A stretch of 64,000 nucleotides of DNA from assembly GCA_964521915.1 (NCBI GenBank), contig CAZFTP010000008.1, forward strand, positions 1,497-65,496. Direction: 5' to 3'. This DNA comes from an uncultured Candidatus Marinamargulisbacteria bacterium (lineage in GTDB: Bacteria > Margulisbacteria > Marinamargulisbacteria > CAZFTP01). The notes below the pieces were generated by a model, which was given only the letters and a program-made list of their open reading frames with translations, searched no databases and had not been told where the DNA came from. This document shows, piece after piece, positions 7,521-13,354 of this stretch (position 1 is its first letter; every line of letters begins with the position of its first letter). A program made the position numbers and the translations under genes.

Positions 7521-9833
7521 TTATTGTATTATAAAAGGATAATATAAAGTTATACCACTTTGGTTGGCTTTAATTTCTTGCTTTAATAATTTAACATCTT
7601 CCGGAAATAGTTCTTTAGGAATAGTATCATAATCTATTACTACCAAATAATTTTTCCCATCATTATTAATATCAAAACTAACTTCACCAGTAGTGTTTTC
7701 AATTTTTTCAACAATATTATCATTATCCTGTAATAATAACCTGGTATTAGGCAATAATTGGTCATAATCTTGATCATATCTACCGTTTTTATTAGCATCA
7801 AAATAAACTATTGCTTTAACCTCTCTACTTAAAGAGACAGGTACATCTAATTGAATATGTCTGGTATTAGTATTCAATTCTAATTTATAAGGATTACTTA
7901 CACAAACTTTATAAAATTTATATTTATCGGAAGAAAACTCTAGATAAGGATTTTCACTAATTCTAATTTTATAATATCCGGAATCTGATGATGTTGCCAT
8001 GTTATTTTTACCATTATTTACCATAAAACCGCTTAACCTTGGTTCATTGCCGTCTCTTATCCCATTTCTATTTAAGTCTTCGTAAAAGAAGCCATCAACA
8101 ATCCAGGTTTTCGGCATAAAACTAATATCCGGATTAAATAATGTCTTAATACCAAAACTTAATTTATCTTGAATATCATCTGCTTTATTAGCATAAGAAT
8201 TATATTGCTTTTCATAATTAACATAAATTTCATCAAAAAATTCACTATTACAACTTAAATAACCTTGTAAATATTTATAAGAATAATCGTAAACACCGTT
8301 AGTTAAATGATAGTCATATTTAGCTTCAAAATTAAAATTAAATTGCAAATTATAAAATTTTAAAAAGGTGAATTTTTTACCTATTAATTTACCGGTATAA
8401 AGTAAAGACGGCATTTTATTAACATCTTGTTCATTAGTTTGTTCTAAAATTAAATAAGAAAAACCTAAATCATTATTAATACCATACCTGGTTAATTGCA
8501 TTTGAGTTAAAGGGGCTACCGGATCATCAAAAGTATATGGTTTATAATTTAAGTAAACTGTAGATGGTAAAAAAACTAAATTTTGTGCCGCATAAACTTG
8601 ATATCCTTCGTATATACTACCGGCAGGGGAAGCATCCCAATTTAATTTCCAATAACTAATATCAATTTTAGGTAAATATTTATCTTTATAAAAACTAATT
8701 CCTGCACCATGTTCATTTACTACGCCTGTGGTTAAATCTGATCTTTTATAACTATTAAATTTACCATAAATATTAAACATATTCTGCCAAAACCTATAAG
8801 AAGCAGTATTATAAGTTCCTAAAAGATTAGTTTGGCTAATATCTGATAAAGATTCAAAATCTTTATCAATAGATTTGAATTGACTACTAAAAGAAAAAGT
8901 TTCGTAGTTTAAAATCCCTTCTAAAAATACACTTAATTTATTATTCTTACCTAAAGCTAATTCAGAATTAATATTTAAAGGCTTAAAACGCATATTTGAA
9001 CCAACCGAAGCTAATAAATACCGACCTAAAACCGTATTTTGATAATTACTTTGTACGCCAAAAATATTACTATAAAGAGAAATATCATGGCTAAGGTTTG
9101 TTGAAATTTTAGTCCCAACAAAATACTTATTATTCAAAGGACCACTCCAAACATCGCTACCCCATAGTTTTTGACCAGTAGCACCACCCAAAACATTAAT
9201 TTGAAAATTATCATATTTTAAATCTGTTAACTGTGCCCCTTGAAATTTAAAATAACTACCTAATAAAGGCGATAAAGAATTCCAGGAATCTCCTAAAGAT
9301 AAAGAATAATCAGGATTTTTAAGTTGTAAAAAACCCAAAACTAATTCTTGATATGCATCTTTTCTTTCAACTTGGAAAAAAGTATTGTATTTACCGTATT
9401 CTGTTTCTCCGCTACTGCCAACTTGAGCCACATTCCAAATTTGTGTTCCATATTTATTTACAATATTTCCAGCCAAAAAATTTACCTGTACTTTAGTTTT
9501 ATCTGAACTTTCTTCTGCTTTTTTCTTCTGCTTTTCTTTTAAAGTAACAGTTTCGCTATAACCTTTAGGTACAATCCGCATGGTAATAGTATTTAAATTA
9601 TTATTTTGATCCCAAACATAAATATAGGTAAGACCCCTTTTTAAAGCGGTAATTTTAATGGTAGTATCATTTATTCTTTCTGCTTTTATTAATTGCGGAT
9701 TTTCAATAACAACGTCTTTTGCGTTATTAAGTTCATAATTAACACTTTGCCCTTCTTCCAATGTATCGGCAAACATCGGCAAAGAAATTAAAAGAAATAT
9801 AACAATAAATAATAATACCTTTAAATGTTTCAT
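7521..9833 (-). CDS. Putative outer-membrane usher-like beta-barrel protein of the chaperone-usher-like pilus locus
   Basis: 770 aa with a signal peptide. It is rich in N/Y/S/G/F with the alternating beta-strand periodicity typical of OMP barrels. It lies directly downstream of the PapD-like chaperone gene, overlapping it by 3 nt, and its size is in the usher range. Confidence 0.4.
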   Translation of the reverse strand: MKHLKVLLFIVIFLLISLPMFADTLEEGQSVNYELNNAKDVVIENPQLIKAERINDTTIKITALKRGLTYIYVWDQNNNLNTITMRIVPKGYSETVTLKEKQKKKAEESSDKTKVQVNFLAGNIVNKYGTQIWNVAQVGSSGETEYGKYNTFFQVERKDAYQELVLGFLQLKNPDYSLSLGDSWNSLSPLLGSYFKFQGAQLTDLKYDNFQINVLGGATGQKLWGSDVWSGPLNNKYFVGTKISTNLSHDISLYSNIFGVQSNYQNTVLGRYLLASVGSNMRFKPLNINSELALGKNNKLSVFLEGILNYETFSFSSQFKSIDKDFESLSDISQTNLLGTYNTASYRFWQNMFNIYGKFNSYKRSDLTTGVVNEHGAGISFYKDKYLPKIDISYWKLNWDASPAGSIYEGYQVYAAQNLVFLPSTVYLNYKPYTFDDPVAPLTQMQLTRYGINNDLGFSYLILEQTNEQDVNKMPSLLYTGKLIGKKFTFLKFYNLQFNFNFEAKYDYHLTNGVYDYSYKYLQGYLSCNSEFFDEIYVNYEKQYNSYANKADDIQDKLSFGIKTLFNPDISFMPKTWIVDGFFYEDLNRNGIRDGNEPRLSGFMVNNGKNNMATSSDSGYYKIRISENPYLEFSSDKYKFYKVCVSNPYKLELNTNTRHIQLDVPVSLSREVKAIVYFDANKNGRYDQDYDQLLPNTRLLLQDNDNIVEKIENTTGEVSFDINNDGKNYLVVIDYDTIPKELFPEDVKLLKQEIKANQSGITLYYPFIIQ

Positions 9834-9835
9834 TT

Positions 9836-10603
9836 TTATTTAACATTAATACTAATTTCTTTAGTAAATAATTTATCTCCTAAATAATTTAAGCTTAATA
9901 AACCTTTATAACTGCCGGATATAAGCTTTTTATTGGTATTAACTACAAATATTTGTTCTTTATTAGGTAAAGCTTTGAAAGAAACTTCCTGCCTATCTAC
10001 TACTACGTGATTTCGCCCTAAAATCAATAATGACCCTTCTAGTTTTAAATGAATATTACTCTTATTTATAAAATTAAGATAAATTTGAGTTTTTGTTTTA
10101 TCTTGTTCAATATCGTTAACTACAAGATCAAAATCATAAGTTTGAGTTGAGTCAATTTCGTGATAAATAATAGACCCTATTCTACCTATTAACCTTACAT
10201 TAGAACTTTTATTAACCAGCATAGGCGCGGCTTCAAAAAAGACTACCCCATATAAACCACCATTTTTATTTTGCGGAGAAGTAACATCTAAATAAACATT
10301 TTCTTTGGCATTACCAGCTAAACGTAATTCTTTAACCGATAATTTAGCATTATCCGCTAAAGAATAAGGCGTAGACCCTAATTTCAAAAATTTTTTGGTT
10401 AGATCATTTTGATATTGCCAATCTTCTATGTATACTTTTAAAACTATCGGATTCTTAGACGTATTTTCTACAGTTATTTTACTGGTAACGGTTGCTCCGG
10501 GTCTGGCTTTAGTATAAATACTTGGCGGATCCACATTAATAGAAAAACCATAAACTTGTAATGAAAAGAACAATAATAATAAAGAAATAATAATTTTTTT
10601 CAT
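9836..10603 (-). CDS. Periplasmic PapD-like pilus assembly chaperone
   Basis: 255 aa with a signal peptide. The N-terminal segment INVDPPSIYTKARPGATVTSKITVENTSKNPIVLKVYIEDW resembles the PapD-N strand (AVSLDRTRAVF...LxIxNxxxxPxLxQxWIE), including the conserved Arg. Confidence 0.5.
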   Translation of the reverse strand: MKKIIISLLLLFFSLQVYGFSINVDPPSIYTKARPGATVTSKITVENTSKNPIVLKVYIEDWQYQNDLTKKFLKLGSTPYSLADNAKLSVKELRLAGNAKENVYLDVTSPQNKNGGLYGVVFFEAAPMLVNKSSNVRLIGRIGSIIYHEIDSTQTYDFDLVVNDIEQDKTKTQIYLNFINKSNIHLKLEGSLLILGRNHVVVDRQEVSFKALPNKEQIFVVNTNKKLISGSYKGLLSLNYLGDKLFTKEISINVK

Positions 10604-12340: not shown

Positions 12341-12343
12341 TTT

Positions 12344-13354
12344 TTAATACATTTTTCTAAATTTAATGTGCTCGATTTTTAAATCCATTTTACCAACCGC
12401 TTTACCGCTACCAGATAAACAAACTATTTGCATTGTTAATAAGCCTCCTGACCCTTTTTTATGATCCGGATTCCAAATATTATCGCCAACTTCTGGGTTT
12501 TCATCTAGAAAATCTGATAAAGGAATTTCAACTAGTTTCCAACCAGTCCAATCAACATTTAAACTATAAGAAAATTTATCATCTTTAGTAGGGTCCCAAC
12601 TTTTTACTGGGTTAACATCTACAACCCAATTATTATTATCATCATCATAAAGTTCTATCTTTAATACACCGCTACCAGATCCATTCCCATAAACCATTAA
12701 TTCCAAAGTATCGTAATTAGTTATTTCTTTACCTAAATAAGTTCCAAATCCGCCAATATACCAATTAATAGTTGACCCTTCTACCAATAAAGATTTATTT
12801 CCTAATTTGTAGGTAGTAATATCTTTAGGGTCATTATCTACCACAGTTAAATTTATACGGTCAAATTTCCAAAATTCAGGATCTTTAGTATAAGTACCAC
12901 TCTTAAAATCAGCTATTAATAACTCATCGGTATTATTTACTTTTTTTTCCTCAATTGCTGGTGAGGATGTATTATTAACAGGTTTTATAGGCTCTGATAC
13001 CGCTGGTTCAACAGATTTCATTGGTTCTGGCGCTGTATTCACCGGTGGAGTAGCAGAAATAATTTCTAATGGTTTATTATTTAAATTATTATTATTACTA
13101 ACTGTGATATTTTCTGTCTTTACCAGATCACCGTTACTGGTAGGTAATAATATTTGTTTTAAGGATTCTTGTTCTTGCGCTGAATAAACAGGATCTGTTA
13201 TTTCAACAGAAACAGCCGGAAGAGGTTTATAAGTCCTTTTAATATTAGTTCTTTTTGTTTTTTTTCTCTTAGTAGCCGCATTAATATCATTAAAATCAGT
13301 TACTAATAAAAAAGACATTAATAATACTAAAGCCCAAATAAAAAATTTTTTCAT
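12344..13354 (-). CDS. Large secreted protein with a C-terminal beta-sandwich (carbohydrate-binding-module-like) domain. It is a candidate tip adhesin of the pilus locus.
   Basis: The start is placed at the internal ATG (MKKFFIWALVLL..., a signal peptide), which is preceded by a GGAGGA Shine-Dalgarno 7-8 nt upstream. The ORF-track start at 13402 lacks both an RBS and a signal peptide. It has a Pro/Thr/Asn-rich linker followed by a C-terminal G/W/D-rich beta-sandwich-like domain. Confidence 0.45.
   Translation of the reverse strand: MKKFFIWALVLLMSFLLVTDFNDINAATKRKKTKRTNIKRTYKPLPAVSVEITDPVYSAQEQESLKQILLPTSNGDLVKTENITVSNNNNLNNKPLEIISATPPVNTAPEPMKSVEPAVSEPIKPVNNTSSPAIEEKKVNNTDELLIADFKSGTYTKDPEFWKFDRINLTVVDNDPKDITTYKLGNKSLLVEGSTINWYIGGFGTYLGKEITNYDTLELMVYGNGSGSGVLKIELYDDDNNNWVVDVNPVKSWDPTKDDKFSYSLNVDWTGWKLVEIPLSDFLDENPEVGDNIWNPDHKKGSGGLLTMQIVCLSGSGKAVGKMDLKIEHIKFRKMY

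Follow-up and report, generated by a model that had tools for sequence, protein, structure and literature searches.

The question raised by this locus, a set of six genes within a 64,000-nucleotide stretch of DNA from an uncultured Candidatus Marinamargulisbacteria bacterium (the window, meaning the whole stretch that was analysed), is which envelope or surface system it encodes. An earlier note, drawn from the letters alone, had proposed a Csu-type chaperone-usher pilus built from three paralogous pilins, a PapD-like chaperone and a provisional usher. The layout that it described is borne out: the module extends over positions 7521-13402 of the minus strand, where the ORF list gives six co-directional, tightly packed open reading frames separated by gaps of 2-13 nt, and a signal-peptide-like hydrophobic N-terminus can be read in the translations of all six. 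Since separate orthologs of each paralog occur in other genomes, and at least nine independent loci keep the gene order of the whole module, these genes are real rather than chance ORFs. Around the module, the window carries genes for envelope functions (PBP, Lnt, LptD-like and, further along, LptF/G). Regarding the two core envelope neighbours named at first, lnt is confirmed by Pfam matches to CN_hydrolase and LNT_N, while the sole signal for lptD is a weak LptD_N match (E 0.068). The predicted Lnt and LptF/G speak for a diderm host.

The three secreted paralogs

The three paralogs, all of them putatively secreted and WxL-like, are encoded on the minus strand at 11762..12340 (p1, 192 aa, or 188 aa from the second Met, as in the public gene call), 11230..11748 (p2, 172 aa, the one that was modelled) and 10614..11225 (p3, 203 aa, the most divergent of them, with a larger insertion). 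Their pairwise identity is about 25%, and they have in common invariant W, W, Y, P, G, Y, F, T and E positions as well as the C-terminal motif (P/A)GxYxxxVxF(T/S)(L/M)TE, in agreement with the initial description of three paralogs with a conserved C-terminus. By HMM, p3 also falls within the subunit family (1.7e-52).

Their connection to WxL proteins arises from profile comparisons. The p1 ortholog group aligned with genuine WxL proteins at 82% in hhalign (P 1e-5), its motifs DLNFG, SDWNLL and GKYNTTVVFTMTE being colinear with the WxL motifs, and the subunit family reached 86.1% against verified WxL proteins (P 5e-6, 148 columns) and 90.7% (P 1.3e-6) with an alignment of 33 sequences. Three colinear motifs are shared between subunits and WxL proteins, namely hSIDxxxxLDFG, xNxGxxW-x-L and AGxYxoTLx(W/F)TLx(D/E). 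Nearly all members of the subunit family carry the first W-x-(L/hydrophobic) motif, whose W is invariant in the nine close sequences; the second 'WxL' motif reads F-x-L in the subunits, which argues against the WxL-based explanation favoured below. Besides, the subunit HMM matches two genuine WxL proteins in plain HMMER, in one direction. The Pfam WxL family (PF13731) gave no match to the nine window-clade subunits (E<=10) or to ten more distant ones (E<=1), and neither the p3 group alone (hhalign 2.6%) nor the window-clade subunits alone (14%) were significant against WxL, so that it takes the alignment of the broad family, together with the link of the cognate chaperone described below, to connect the subunits to WxL. 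Judged by these comparisons, the three subunits are distant WxL-domain homologs lying below the family threshold. In addition to the W to F replacement and to the sub-threshold Pfam scores, they differ from the WxL proteins of WxL/Csc clusters by having no Pro-rich linker and by a C-terminus that coincides with the acidic residue of the second motif.

In terms of fold, the AlphaFold monomer model of p2 is closest to self-complemented FimA and to other donor-strand fibre subunits (CfaB, CsuA/B). The N-terminal strand of this model has a pLDDT of about 55, compared to 78-91 for the rest. This strand is amphipathic, and the C-terminal one is conserved, with Gly and one aromatic residue.

The two-domain protein and its relation to WxLIP

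The gene at 9836..10603 (minus strand) encodes a two-domain, 255-aa protein that starts with a signal peptide and whose organisation is WxLIP-like (DUF916 followed by DUF3324). Its family aligned with WxLIP over both domains at 95.6% in hhalign (P 1.1e-8, 254 columns), and a family of 18 sequences at 97.2% (P 2.8e-11), the alignments spanning 235-254 columns, whereas all controls (reversed, column-shuffled, non-cognate and E. coli Fim), for this comparison and for that of the subunits with WxL proteins alike, remained at or below 1.9%; the WxL/WxLIP reference set was checked by Pfam. In the same line, HMMER matches between the chaperone-like family and WxLIP are reciprocal. For single sequences, of which every Pfam score for the WxLIP families lies below the gathering cut-off, WxLIP_PGBD (DUF916, PF06030) matches nine of the nine close homologs (best E 3e-6), and WxLIP_HBD (DUF3324, PF11797) matches the C-terminal domain in two loci (L003 and L008). 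As regards Ig-type families, the protein and its relatives have weak matches of the MSP/Cep192/ASH type only, Pfam MSP being found in seven of the nine close homologs. Taken together, these data indicate that the chaperone-like protein is homologous, at the level of sequence profiles, to both WxLIP domains, DUF916 and then DUF3324.

A clear difference from the WxLIP proteins of WxL/Csc clusters lies in the C-terminal membrane anchor. No transmembrane helix was found in the 11 chaperone-like proteins, whose maximal 19-residue hydropathy is at most 1.5 in every case, whereas such a helix is present in each of the six WxLIPs (at least 2.8). Since this anchor is lost, the WxLIP-like protein should be soluble in the periplasm, where it is a putative chaperone. 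Its most conserved block, defined by invariant alignment columns, covers residues 115-149 (GGLYGVVFFE...GRIGSIIYHEI; 10157..10261, minus strand); it corresponds to the end of the first domain, aligns opposite the long loop/hairpin region of WxLIP, and may provide the donated strand.

The 770-residue protein, gene A and the distribution of the module

The last gene of the module (7521..9833 on the minus strand, from the ORF list) encodes the putative outer-membrane component, of 770 aa, and a gene of this type adjoins the chaperone-like gene in every locus examined. When 1.84 billion representatives were searched, the central region was matched in about 45 of the best 150 relatives of this protein. 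At its N-terminus, residues 25-85 (9579..9761, minus strand) form a T2SS-T3SS_pil_N domain (Pfam PF13629, 29.7 bits vs a cut-off of 23), which is present in 34 of 46 relatives and whose family profile matches PDB 8jvb (E 3.7e-10) and RcpA 8odn. On this evidence, the N-domain is of the Tad-secretin type, like the N-terminus of RcpA/CpaC. The likeness to the Tad/Flp secretins is restricted to this pil_N domain, however: the secretin domain PF00263 was found neither in the 770-aa protein nor in the 46 relatives, and the remainder consists of a monomer-sized beta-rich core and SdrD-B-like domains.

The core of about 480 aa (residues 96-575; 8109..9548, minus strand) is rich in Gly and aromatic residues, with an amphipathic beta periodicity for which a crude count gives about 24-26 segments. 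It matches no known family in Pfam or by sequence comparison with the PDB, and AF2, run from a 3-sequence alignment, gave a pLDDT of about 22 over residues 89-668; its periodicity and composition lead us to presume a membrane beta-barrel. The C-terminal part (residues 576-770; 7524..8108, minus strand) comprises two beta-sandwich domains similar to the SdrD-B / CarboxypepD_reg type. For the window protein the Pfam SdrD_B match is weak, yet 40 of the 46 relatives have it, SdrD is matched in the PDB, and the AF2 pLDDT reaches 70-83 for residues 668-770.

At the other end, gene A (12344..13402, minus strand; 352 aa in the ORF list, or 336 aa from the internal Met17 at 13354, the MKKFFIW start of the earlier note) opens the module and is conserved there, with orthologs at the same position in L002, L003, L009, L026, L027 and L028. 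In its product, a signal peptide and a Lys/Pro-rich linker precede a C-terminal CBM11/CIA30-like beta-sandwich, the Pfam matches to CBM_11 (E 0.0043) and CIA30 being weak and below cut-off. No similarity of gene A to the subunits or to WxL was detected (hhalign 0.2%), and it has neither a subunit-like domain nor a conserved donor strand, which argues against the favoured explanation and leaves the attachment of this protein without account.

A module of this composition (a CBM-like protein, two to four subunits, a chaperone-like protein and an outer-membrane protein), with its 770-aa-type protein, recurs in Margulisiibacteriota, Omnitrophota, Deinococcus plasmids and unassigned metagenome contigs. 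Genes for GH5, GH26, GH8, GH2, CBM and ABC sugar transporters adjoin it in L025, L026, L028 and L009, including a GH5 mannosidase, an ABC sugar importer and LacI in L025, GH26/GH2/CBM9 in L026, and GH8 and CBM4_9-GH5 in L028.

Assembly, function and competing explanations

We consider it rather probable that this locus represents, in an outer-membrane (diderm) host, what the WxL/Csc cell-surface cluster is in the Gram-positive Lactobacillales and Bacillales; in that cluster, CscA is a WxLIP, CscB and CscC are WxL proteins and CscD is an LPXTG protein. The two-domain protein and, more distantly, the subunits are homologous between the two systems, and both systems are linked to carbohydrate-related genes (PMC1534035). 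Homology shows which parts are at hand, as far as sequences can tell: three predicted Sec-exported WxL-like subunits, an anchor-less WxLIP-like protein, and a dedicated large protein with a signal peptide, which the diderm versions alone possess and which their added last gene encodes. The WxL/Csc cluster differs by its monoderm host with wall-bound display, as opposed to the diderm host of the module (Lnt, LptF/G), and by its LPXTG-type protein, of which none was seen on reading the six module translations. These comparisons suggest a previously unannotated, outer-membrane-equipped relative of WxL/Csc, whose assembly route would be chaperone-usher-like with unrelated parts.

Along this route, the periplasmic WxLIP-like protein would bind each newly exported subunit and donate a strand to complete its beta-sandwich, a step drawn from the AlphaFold prediction for Gram-positive WxLIP-WxL pairs, in which a hairpin strand of WxLIP is predicted by AF2 to complete the WxL sandwich (PMC10599100). 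The 770-aa protein may then receive the complex on its predicted periplasmic domains, be it the N-terminal one (Tad-secretin-type), the C-terminal beta-sandwiches or both; its beta-rich core would serve as outer-membrane passage or anchor, and the subunits would be displayed or polymerised at the surface, possibly via exchange with their amphipathic N-terminal strand. We thereby infer that the WxL-type subunits are exported by a putative chaperone-usher-like, non-homologous pathway. Its function is probably polysaccharide capture, because the first gene is CBM-like and glycoside-hydrolase or sugar-transporter neighbours are frequent; Csc clusters have likewise been proposed to act in carbohydrate acquisition (PMC1534035). 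In the window itself, the neighbours are envelope-biogenesis genes and not glycoside hydrolases, which argues against a diderm WxL/Csc counterpart.

These neighbours would rather fit a periplasmic envelope complex, in which the WxL-like proteins, bound to peptidoglycan, and the WxLIP-like protein would jointly act as a tether or scaffold between the wall and the 770-aa outer-membrane protein, an explanation that we hold to be unlikely. WxL domains and DUF916 have been described as peptidoglycan-binding in Gram-positives (PMC9772566, PMC10599100), which argues against surface display because diderm peptidoglycan lies in the periplasm, and SLH-domain proteins adjoin the module in L003, L026 and L027. 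However, the envelope neighbourhood is not conserved, while genes for glycoside hydrolases, CBM proteins and sugar transporters adjoin the module repeatedly; a set of two to four diversified paralogs accompanied by a CBM-like protein is what one typically meets in binding structures exposed at the surface, and the modelled subunit fold resembles that of fibre subunits. Still more doubtful is a role in glycan uptake, whereby the 770-aa protein would be an oligosaccharide import channel and the WxL- and CBM-like proteins would bind the substrate, according to a Sus-type logic. The CBM-like character of gene A and the position of the module within or beside polysaccharide-utilisation genes in L025, L026 and L028 agree with such a role, but the 46 relatives of the 770-aa protein gave no TonB-dependent-receptor or porin family signal, the subunits would have to reach the surface by some route all the same, and the homology of the chaperone-like protein to a WxL-binding partner suits assembly better than transport.

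As for the chaperone-usher pilus proposed at first, its three-part logic stands, the modelled fold is nearest to subunits of such pili (classical Fim/Pap, alternative CFA/I, archaic Csu/CupE), and the large protein likewise has periplasmic-type beta-sandwich domains flanking a beta-rich core; nevertheless, no sequence or profile relationship was found for any of the three components. PapD_N (PF00345) and PapD_C (PF02753) match neither the window protein nor its nine close and its distant homologs (E<=1). Usher (PF00577), PapC_N and PapC_C do not match the window protein (E<=1), and the usher families gave nothing at E<=0.01 in the 46 relatives, apart from one CooC_C match (0.0069). SCPU (PF05229) and Fimbrial-type pilin families are absent from nine close subunits (E<=10) and ten more distant ones (E<=1). 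In hhalign, with a comparison set of E. coli chaperones and pilins to which archaic-type Csu/SCPU sequences did not belong, the chaperone-like family scored 12% against five chaperones with signal peptides and 0.7-0.8% once trimmed, so that the PapD-like N-terminus claimed for this protein finds no support, and the trimmed subunits scored 1.3-1.9% against 12 pilins. Against ushers, the 770-aa protein scored 0.9% for the barrel and 0.2% for the N-domain, which is of the Tad-secretin type instead; its C-terminal domain gave a weak 22-56% with FimD CTD1. The absent PapD, usher and SCPU matches and the low hhalign values speak firmly against a Csu/sigma identity, and a highly divergent archaic (Csu/sigma, SCPU-type) member is very improbable, being close to refuted at the sequence level.

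More broadly, the WxL/Csc cluster and the diderm module might constitute one phylogenetically broad, unrecognised class of donor-strand surface-fibre or complex assembly, analogous to chaperone-usher pili, a tentative proposal towards which we lean less than against it. If true, this class would combine a chaperone family (WxLIP) and an outer-membrane translocon family (pil_N, a novel barrel and SdrD-B) of its own, the Gram-positive WxL cluster being a monoderm form that has no translocon and whose chaperone is anchored in the cytoplasmic membrane. The module itself differs from the chaperone-free donor-strand fibres (TasA, archaeal bundling pili, cannulae CanX, TLP), which have neither a dedicated two-domain partner nor an outer-membrane component, and for which sequence similarity to the module was not detected. 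Finally, the order of a lectin/CBM-type protein, several small paralogs and then a two-domain protein is common to the module and the WxL/Csc cluster, and a matching order, with three small paralogs, is found on a Bacillus tropicus plasmid.

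Organisation and recurrence of the operon

The earlier description of six co-directional and tightly packed genes is borne out by six open reading frames on the - strand at 7521-13402, which are separated by gaps of 2-13 nt and encode, in operon order, proteins of 352 (gene A, CBM11/CIA30-like), 192, 172 and 203 (the small subunits p1, p2 and p3), 255 (a two-domain chaperone-like protein) and 770 aa (a putative outer-membrane component). Gene A starts either at 13402 or at Met17, at 13354, the latter being the coordinate first proposed. When read by eye, the six translations all open with a positive charge followed by a hydrophobic stretch and a small-residue cleavage-like site. 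The small proteins had also rightly been recognized as paralogs with a common C-terminus, GxYxxxVxF(T/S)(L/M)TE being found in all three, together with pairwise identities of about 25% and invariant Trp, Gly, Tyr, Phe, Thr and Glu positions. Since separate orthologs exist for each of p1, p2 and p3, and since orthologs and synteny argue against chance open reading frames, this last possibility was rejected. Matches in a promoter and terminator scan were no more numerous than in shuffled sequence, so that gene spacing is the sole basis of the transcription unit.

The closest named relatives of the operon proteins belong to a Candidatus Margulisiibacteriota MAG (53-64% identity). Besides, a module made of gene A where present, two to four subunits, the chaperone-like protein and a protein of the 770-aa type recurs across loci: two GTDB MAGs (L002 and L003), which are the sole related loci from the genome-collection scan, metagenome contigs of 36-51% GC (L007-L011), an Omnitrophota MAG (L025), three further assemblies (L026-L028) and, in shortened form, Deinococcus plasmids (four species, with inspection of three). 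The identities of the parts were confirmed by HMM in loci left out of training. Existing annotation describes the members as hypothetical or by single domains; on plasmid 2 of Deinococcus deserti VCD115 (L017, 88292-91583), the chaperone-like gene is annotated as 'FimB/Mfa2 family fimbrial subunit' and the large gene as 'carboxypeptidase regulatory-like domain-containing protein'. Other cultivable Deinococcus strains carry L004 and L018, and the large proteins of L017 and L018 give no match to the HMM of the ~480-aa core (residues 96-575) of the 770-aa protein.

Homology to the WxL and WxLIP proteins of Gram-positive bacteria

Published descriptions restrict the WxL/Csc clusters, whose mechanism is still unclear, to a subset of Gram-positive bacteria (PMC1534035, PMC9772566, PMC10599100). 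A first link to them arises from the WxLIP_PGBD (DUF916) family, matched by nine out of nine close homologs of the 255-aa protein at sub-threshold level (best E 3e-6) and over nearly the whole Pfam model, while WxLIP_HBD (DUF3324) is matched by the second domain of more distant chaperone-like homologs. The Pfam WxL model gives no match to the subunits, a subunit tblastn against plasmids returned chance-level matches only, and PDB sequence searches with the 770-aa protein, the chaperone-like protein and a subunit profile found nothing. With tryptic peptides of the E. faecium WxLIP3 from a published supplement as tblastn seed against plasmids, the reference set comprised six genuine WxL clusters on plasmids of Enterococcus, Melissococcus, Bacillus, Lactiplantibacillus and Lactococcus; a Pfam check of representatives from three clusters (five WxL proteins and two WxLIP) found all of them bona fide.

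In profile-profile comparisons run after removal of signal peptides, the chaperone-like family matched WxLIP at 95.6% (P 1.1e-8, 254 columns, both domains) and, with 18 sequences, at 97.2% (P 2.8e-11, 235 columns). The subunit family matched WxL at 86.1% (P 5e-6, 148 columns, whole domain) and, with 33 sequences, at 90.7% (P 1.3e-6, 56 columns), and the controls (reversed, 20 column-shuffled, non-cognate, E. coli) remained at <=1.9%. In hhalign, the p3 group alone (2.6%) and the window clade alone (14%) are not significantly WxL-like. Plain hmmsearch likewise yields matches of the subunit HMM to two WxL proteins from Bacillus, of the chaperone HMM to one WxLIP from Enterococcus and of the WxLIP HMM to three diderm chaperone-like proteins. 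In addition, three colinear motifs correspond between the window subunits and genuine WxL proteins, namely FEISLDRPDIDFG with PLSIDYASSLDFG, KTNTGNRWYLL with DNRGTEAGWSLKV, and AGKYETIVRFTLTE with AGEYVSTLTWTLLD. At the level of sequence, these data show that the two-domain protein is homologous to WxLIP and that the subunits are, within the limits of the p3 and window-clade results, homologous to WxL.

The gene order, with a lectin/CBM-type gene, small paralogs and a two-domain protein, is that of a Bacillus tropicus plasmid cluster, whereas the diderm version bears an extra 770-aa gene after the two-domain gene. Hydropathy reveals a C-terminal transmembrane helix in every WxLIP and in none of the chaperone-like proteins. 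In contrast to the Gram-positive Csc clusters, no LPXTG protein is seen by eye among the six window translations, and the window subunits are devoid of the Pro-rich linker of Gram-positive WxL proteins and do not extend beyond the second motif's acidic residue. The comparison shows that, in diderm hosts, the anchor is lost and a large, conserved protein with a signal peptide is added; in the present case, the existence of an outer membrane is indicated by Lnt and LptF/G, also encoded in the window. In four loci, the chaperone-like protein reaches 372-397 aa with a third Ig-like domain (L008 1097-2218, L009 9944-11137, L025 6629-7747 and L028 7875-8999), recognized in L008 through weak CARDB/WxLIP_HBD-like matches; by hydropathy, the longer proteins of L008 and L009 have no membrane anchor.

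The large protein, the proposed assembly pathway and its alternatives

The N-terminal domain of the 770-aa protein is T2SS-T3SS_pil_N, above the Pfam cut-off and present in 34 of 46 relatives, some of which have additional N-terminal TPR repeats. Among PDB entries, the profile of the family matches Tad secretins at their N-termini (8jvb, E 3.7e-10, and RcpA 8odn); a secretin was rejected for lack of a secretin domain. At the other end, SdrD-B/CarboxypepD_reg-like sandwiches are found in 40 of the 46. Between them, the ~480-aa core, which has no counterpart among Pfam families or PDB sequences, is rich in Gly and aromatic residues, with ~24-26 amphipathic beta-like segments by a crude and unreliable count. 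AF2 with a three-sequence alignment left this core unfolded, and Foldseek with that model retrieved generic beta-sandwiches only. An exhaustive HMMER search gave 664 matches at E<=1e-3, many via the SdrD-B repeats only, the central region being covered in ~45 of the best 150. A single relative among the 46 has a match to SlpA_C of Pfam (E 4.7e-9), the domain that forms the beta-barrel of the S-layer protein in Deinococcus; this match did not turn up among the ten relatives re-scanned and, if located within the shared core, would be a lead to the family of the putative barrel. Another match concerns CooC_C (one relative, E 0.0069).

Residues 115-149, which make up the most conserved block of the chaperone-like protein, are located where domain 1 ends, and the donated strand of PapD-like chaperones (PapD/FimC) is likewise at the end of domain 1. 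As for the subunits, the AF2 model of p2 (pLDDT 78.8, pTM 0.67) shows a predicted fold that is pilin-like, in which pLDDT falls to ~55 in the N-terminal strand (residues 27-37), against 78-91 elsewhere. This strand is amphipathic in p1, p2 and p3 when the sequences are read by eye. For WxL, the N-terminal strand has been described as likely to rearrange (PMC10599100, PMC9772566). The soluble WxLIP-like protein may act as a periplasmic chaperone by strand complementation and would hand the subunits to the 770-aa protein, whose core may serve as an outer-membrane passage or anchor, the subunits being then displayed or polymerised via N-terminal strand exchange. With moderate confidence, we favor the view that the locus is a diderm form of the WxL/Csc cluster, chaperone-usher-like in its working and outside that family. 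In the literature searched, the coverage of which is incomplete, no paper associates WxL with assembly by donor strands, with diderm bacteria or with a partner in the outer membrane.

It is rather unlikely that the products would instead form a periplasmic complex linked to peptidoglycan. A glycan-uptake apparatus appears somewhat less probable still. The lnt/lptD surroundings seen in the window are not conserved across loci, and carbohydrate genes recur beside the module: a GH5 mannosidase, an ABC sugar importer and LacI in L025, GH2, two GH26, CBM9 and CBM11 proteins in L026, a GH8 giant and a CBM4_9-GH5 protein in L028, and a CBM4_9 protein in L009. These neighbours fit the CBM11/CIA30-like domain of gene A and parallel the role in carbohydrate acquisition proposed for the Gram-positive csc clusters (PMC1534035).

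The earlier note had read the locus as an archaic Csu/sigma-type chaperone-usher pilus; the observation stands and its interpretation is supported in part. Pfam and NCBIfam scans revealed no PapD_N/C, Usher/PapC or SCPU in any of the six proteins at E<=1, nor in ten more distant subunits and chaperone-like proteins at the same threshold. None of these families was matched either by nine homologs of the 255-aa protein (E<=1), by the 46 relatives of the 770-aa protein (E<=0.01) or by nine subunit sequences (E<=10). Against reference profiles from five E. coli K-12 operons, among which archaic Csu-type sequences do not figure, hhalign with trimmed signal peptides gave 0.7-0.8% for the chaperone-like protein versus chaperones and 1.3-1.9% for the subunits versus pilins; the central region of the 770-aa protein scored 0.9% against usher barrels, the comparison of the N-domains gave 0.2%, and untrimmed comparisons reached 12% at most. 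The only non-trivial signal, a weak one (22-56%) between the C-terminal region of the 770-aa protein and FimD CTD1, rests on a motif common to carboxypeptidase-regulatory-like sandwiches. In the light of these null scans and low scores, the locus, as judged from sequence and against E. coli K-12 references, cannot be recognized as belonging to the chaperone-usher family, and Csu/SCPU membership was rejected on the same grounds. A hyper-divergent Csu system is highly improbable, given the lack of any PapD, usher or SCPU match and the low hhalign scores with signal peptides trimmed. Lipoprotein-type type V pili were rejected too, the subunits, read by eye, having no lipobox.

Implications and surroundings of the locus

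The diderm module carries the WxL/Csc family far beyond Firmicutes, in versions that combine a soluble WxLIP-like protein with a dedicated outer-membrane-type protein. WxLIP would thereby be recast from a host-binding anchor into a probable assembly chaperone, and the 770-aa type as a putative outer-membrane family that may be a new kind of usher-like translocon. The availability of one surface system in matched diderm and monoderm forms is relevant to the question of how envelope machines adjust to having, or lacking, an outer membrane. The finding is worth follow-up. A role in polysaccharide capture becomes testable through the recurrence of glycoside hydrolases around the module, and experiments are feasible because cultivable Deinococcus strains bear the module on plasmids.

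Around the module, SLH-domain proteins adjoin it in at least two of the further assemblies (L026 13450-17458 and L027 1002-2795), and a 597-aa gene occupies the equivalent position in the MAG locus L003 (2425-4218). In two of these three loci, argS and a tilS-like gene lie upstream instead of lnt. In the window, the lnt and lptD neighbourhood noted earlier is confirmed as regards lnt; LptD is plausible, not established, for a 799-aa protein (15667-18066, -) whose sole LptD signal is a weak match to LptD_N (E 0.068), the assignment being plausible because LptF/G lies at 20533-21795. Between lnt and this gene, a 229-aa protein with a lipobox-like FFVSGC is encoded at 15018-15707 (-), its reading frame overlapping the 799-aa one by ~40 nt. 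Immediately downstream of the operon, a 243-aa open reading frame (6642-7373, -) without signal peptide contains three tandem Ser/Pro-rich repeats, SPSSRS(G/V)SP(V/F)E(R/Q)L-like, and matches no Pfam family (best E 0.15). Further away, a 782-aa ankyrin-repeat protein (27309-29657, +; Ank_2 E 1.5e-8) is of the type alluded to as 'eukaryote-like' in the earlier note. GC content is 23-36% throughout positions 1-64000, and the scan shows no compositional island around the operon. Finally, GC skew is negative at 1-24 kb and 40-48 kb, where open reading frames are mostly on the minus strand, and positive at 48-60 kb, where they are mostly on the plus strand.
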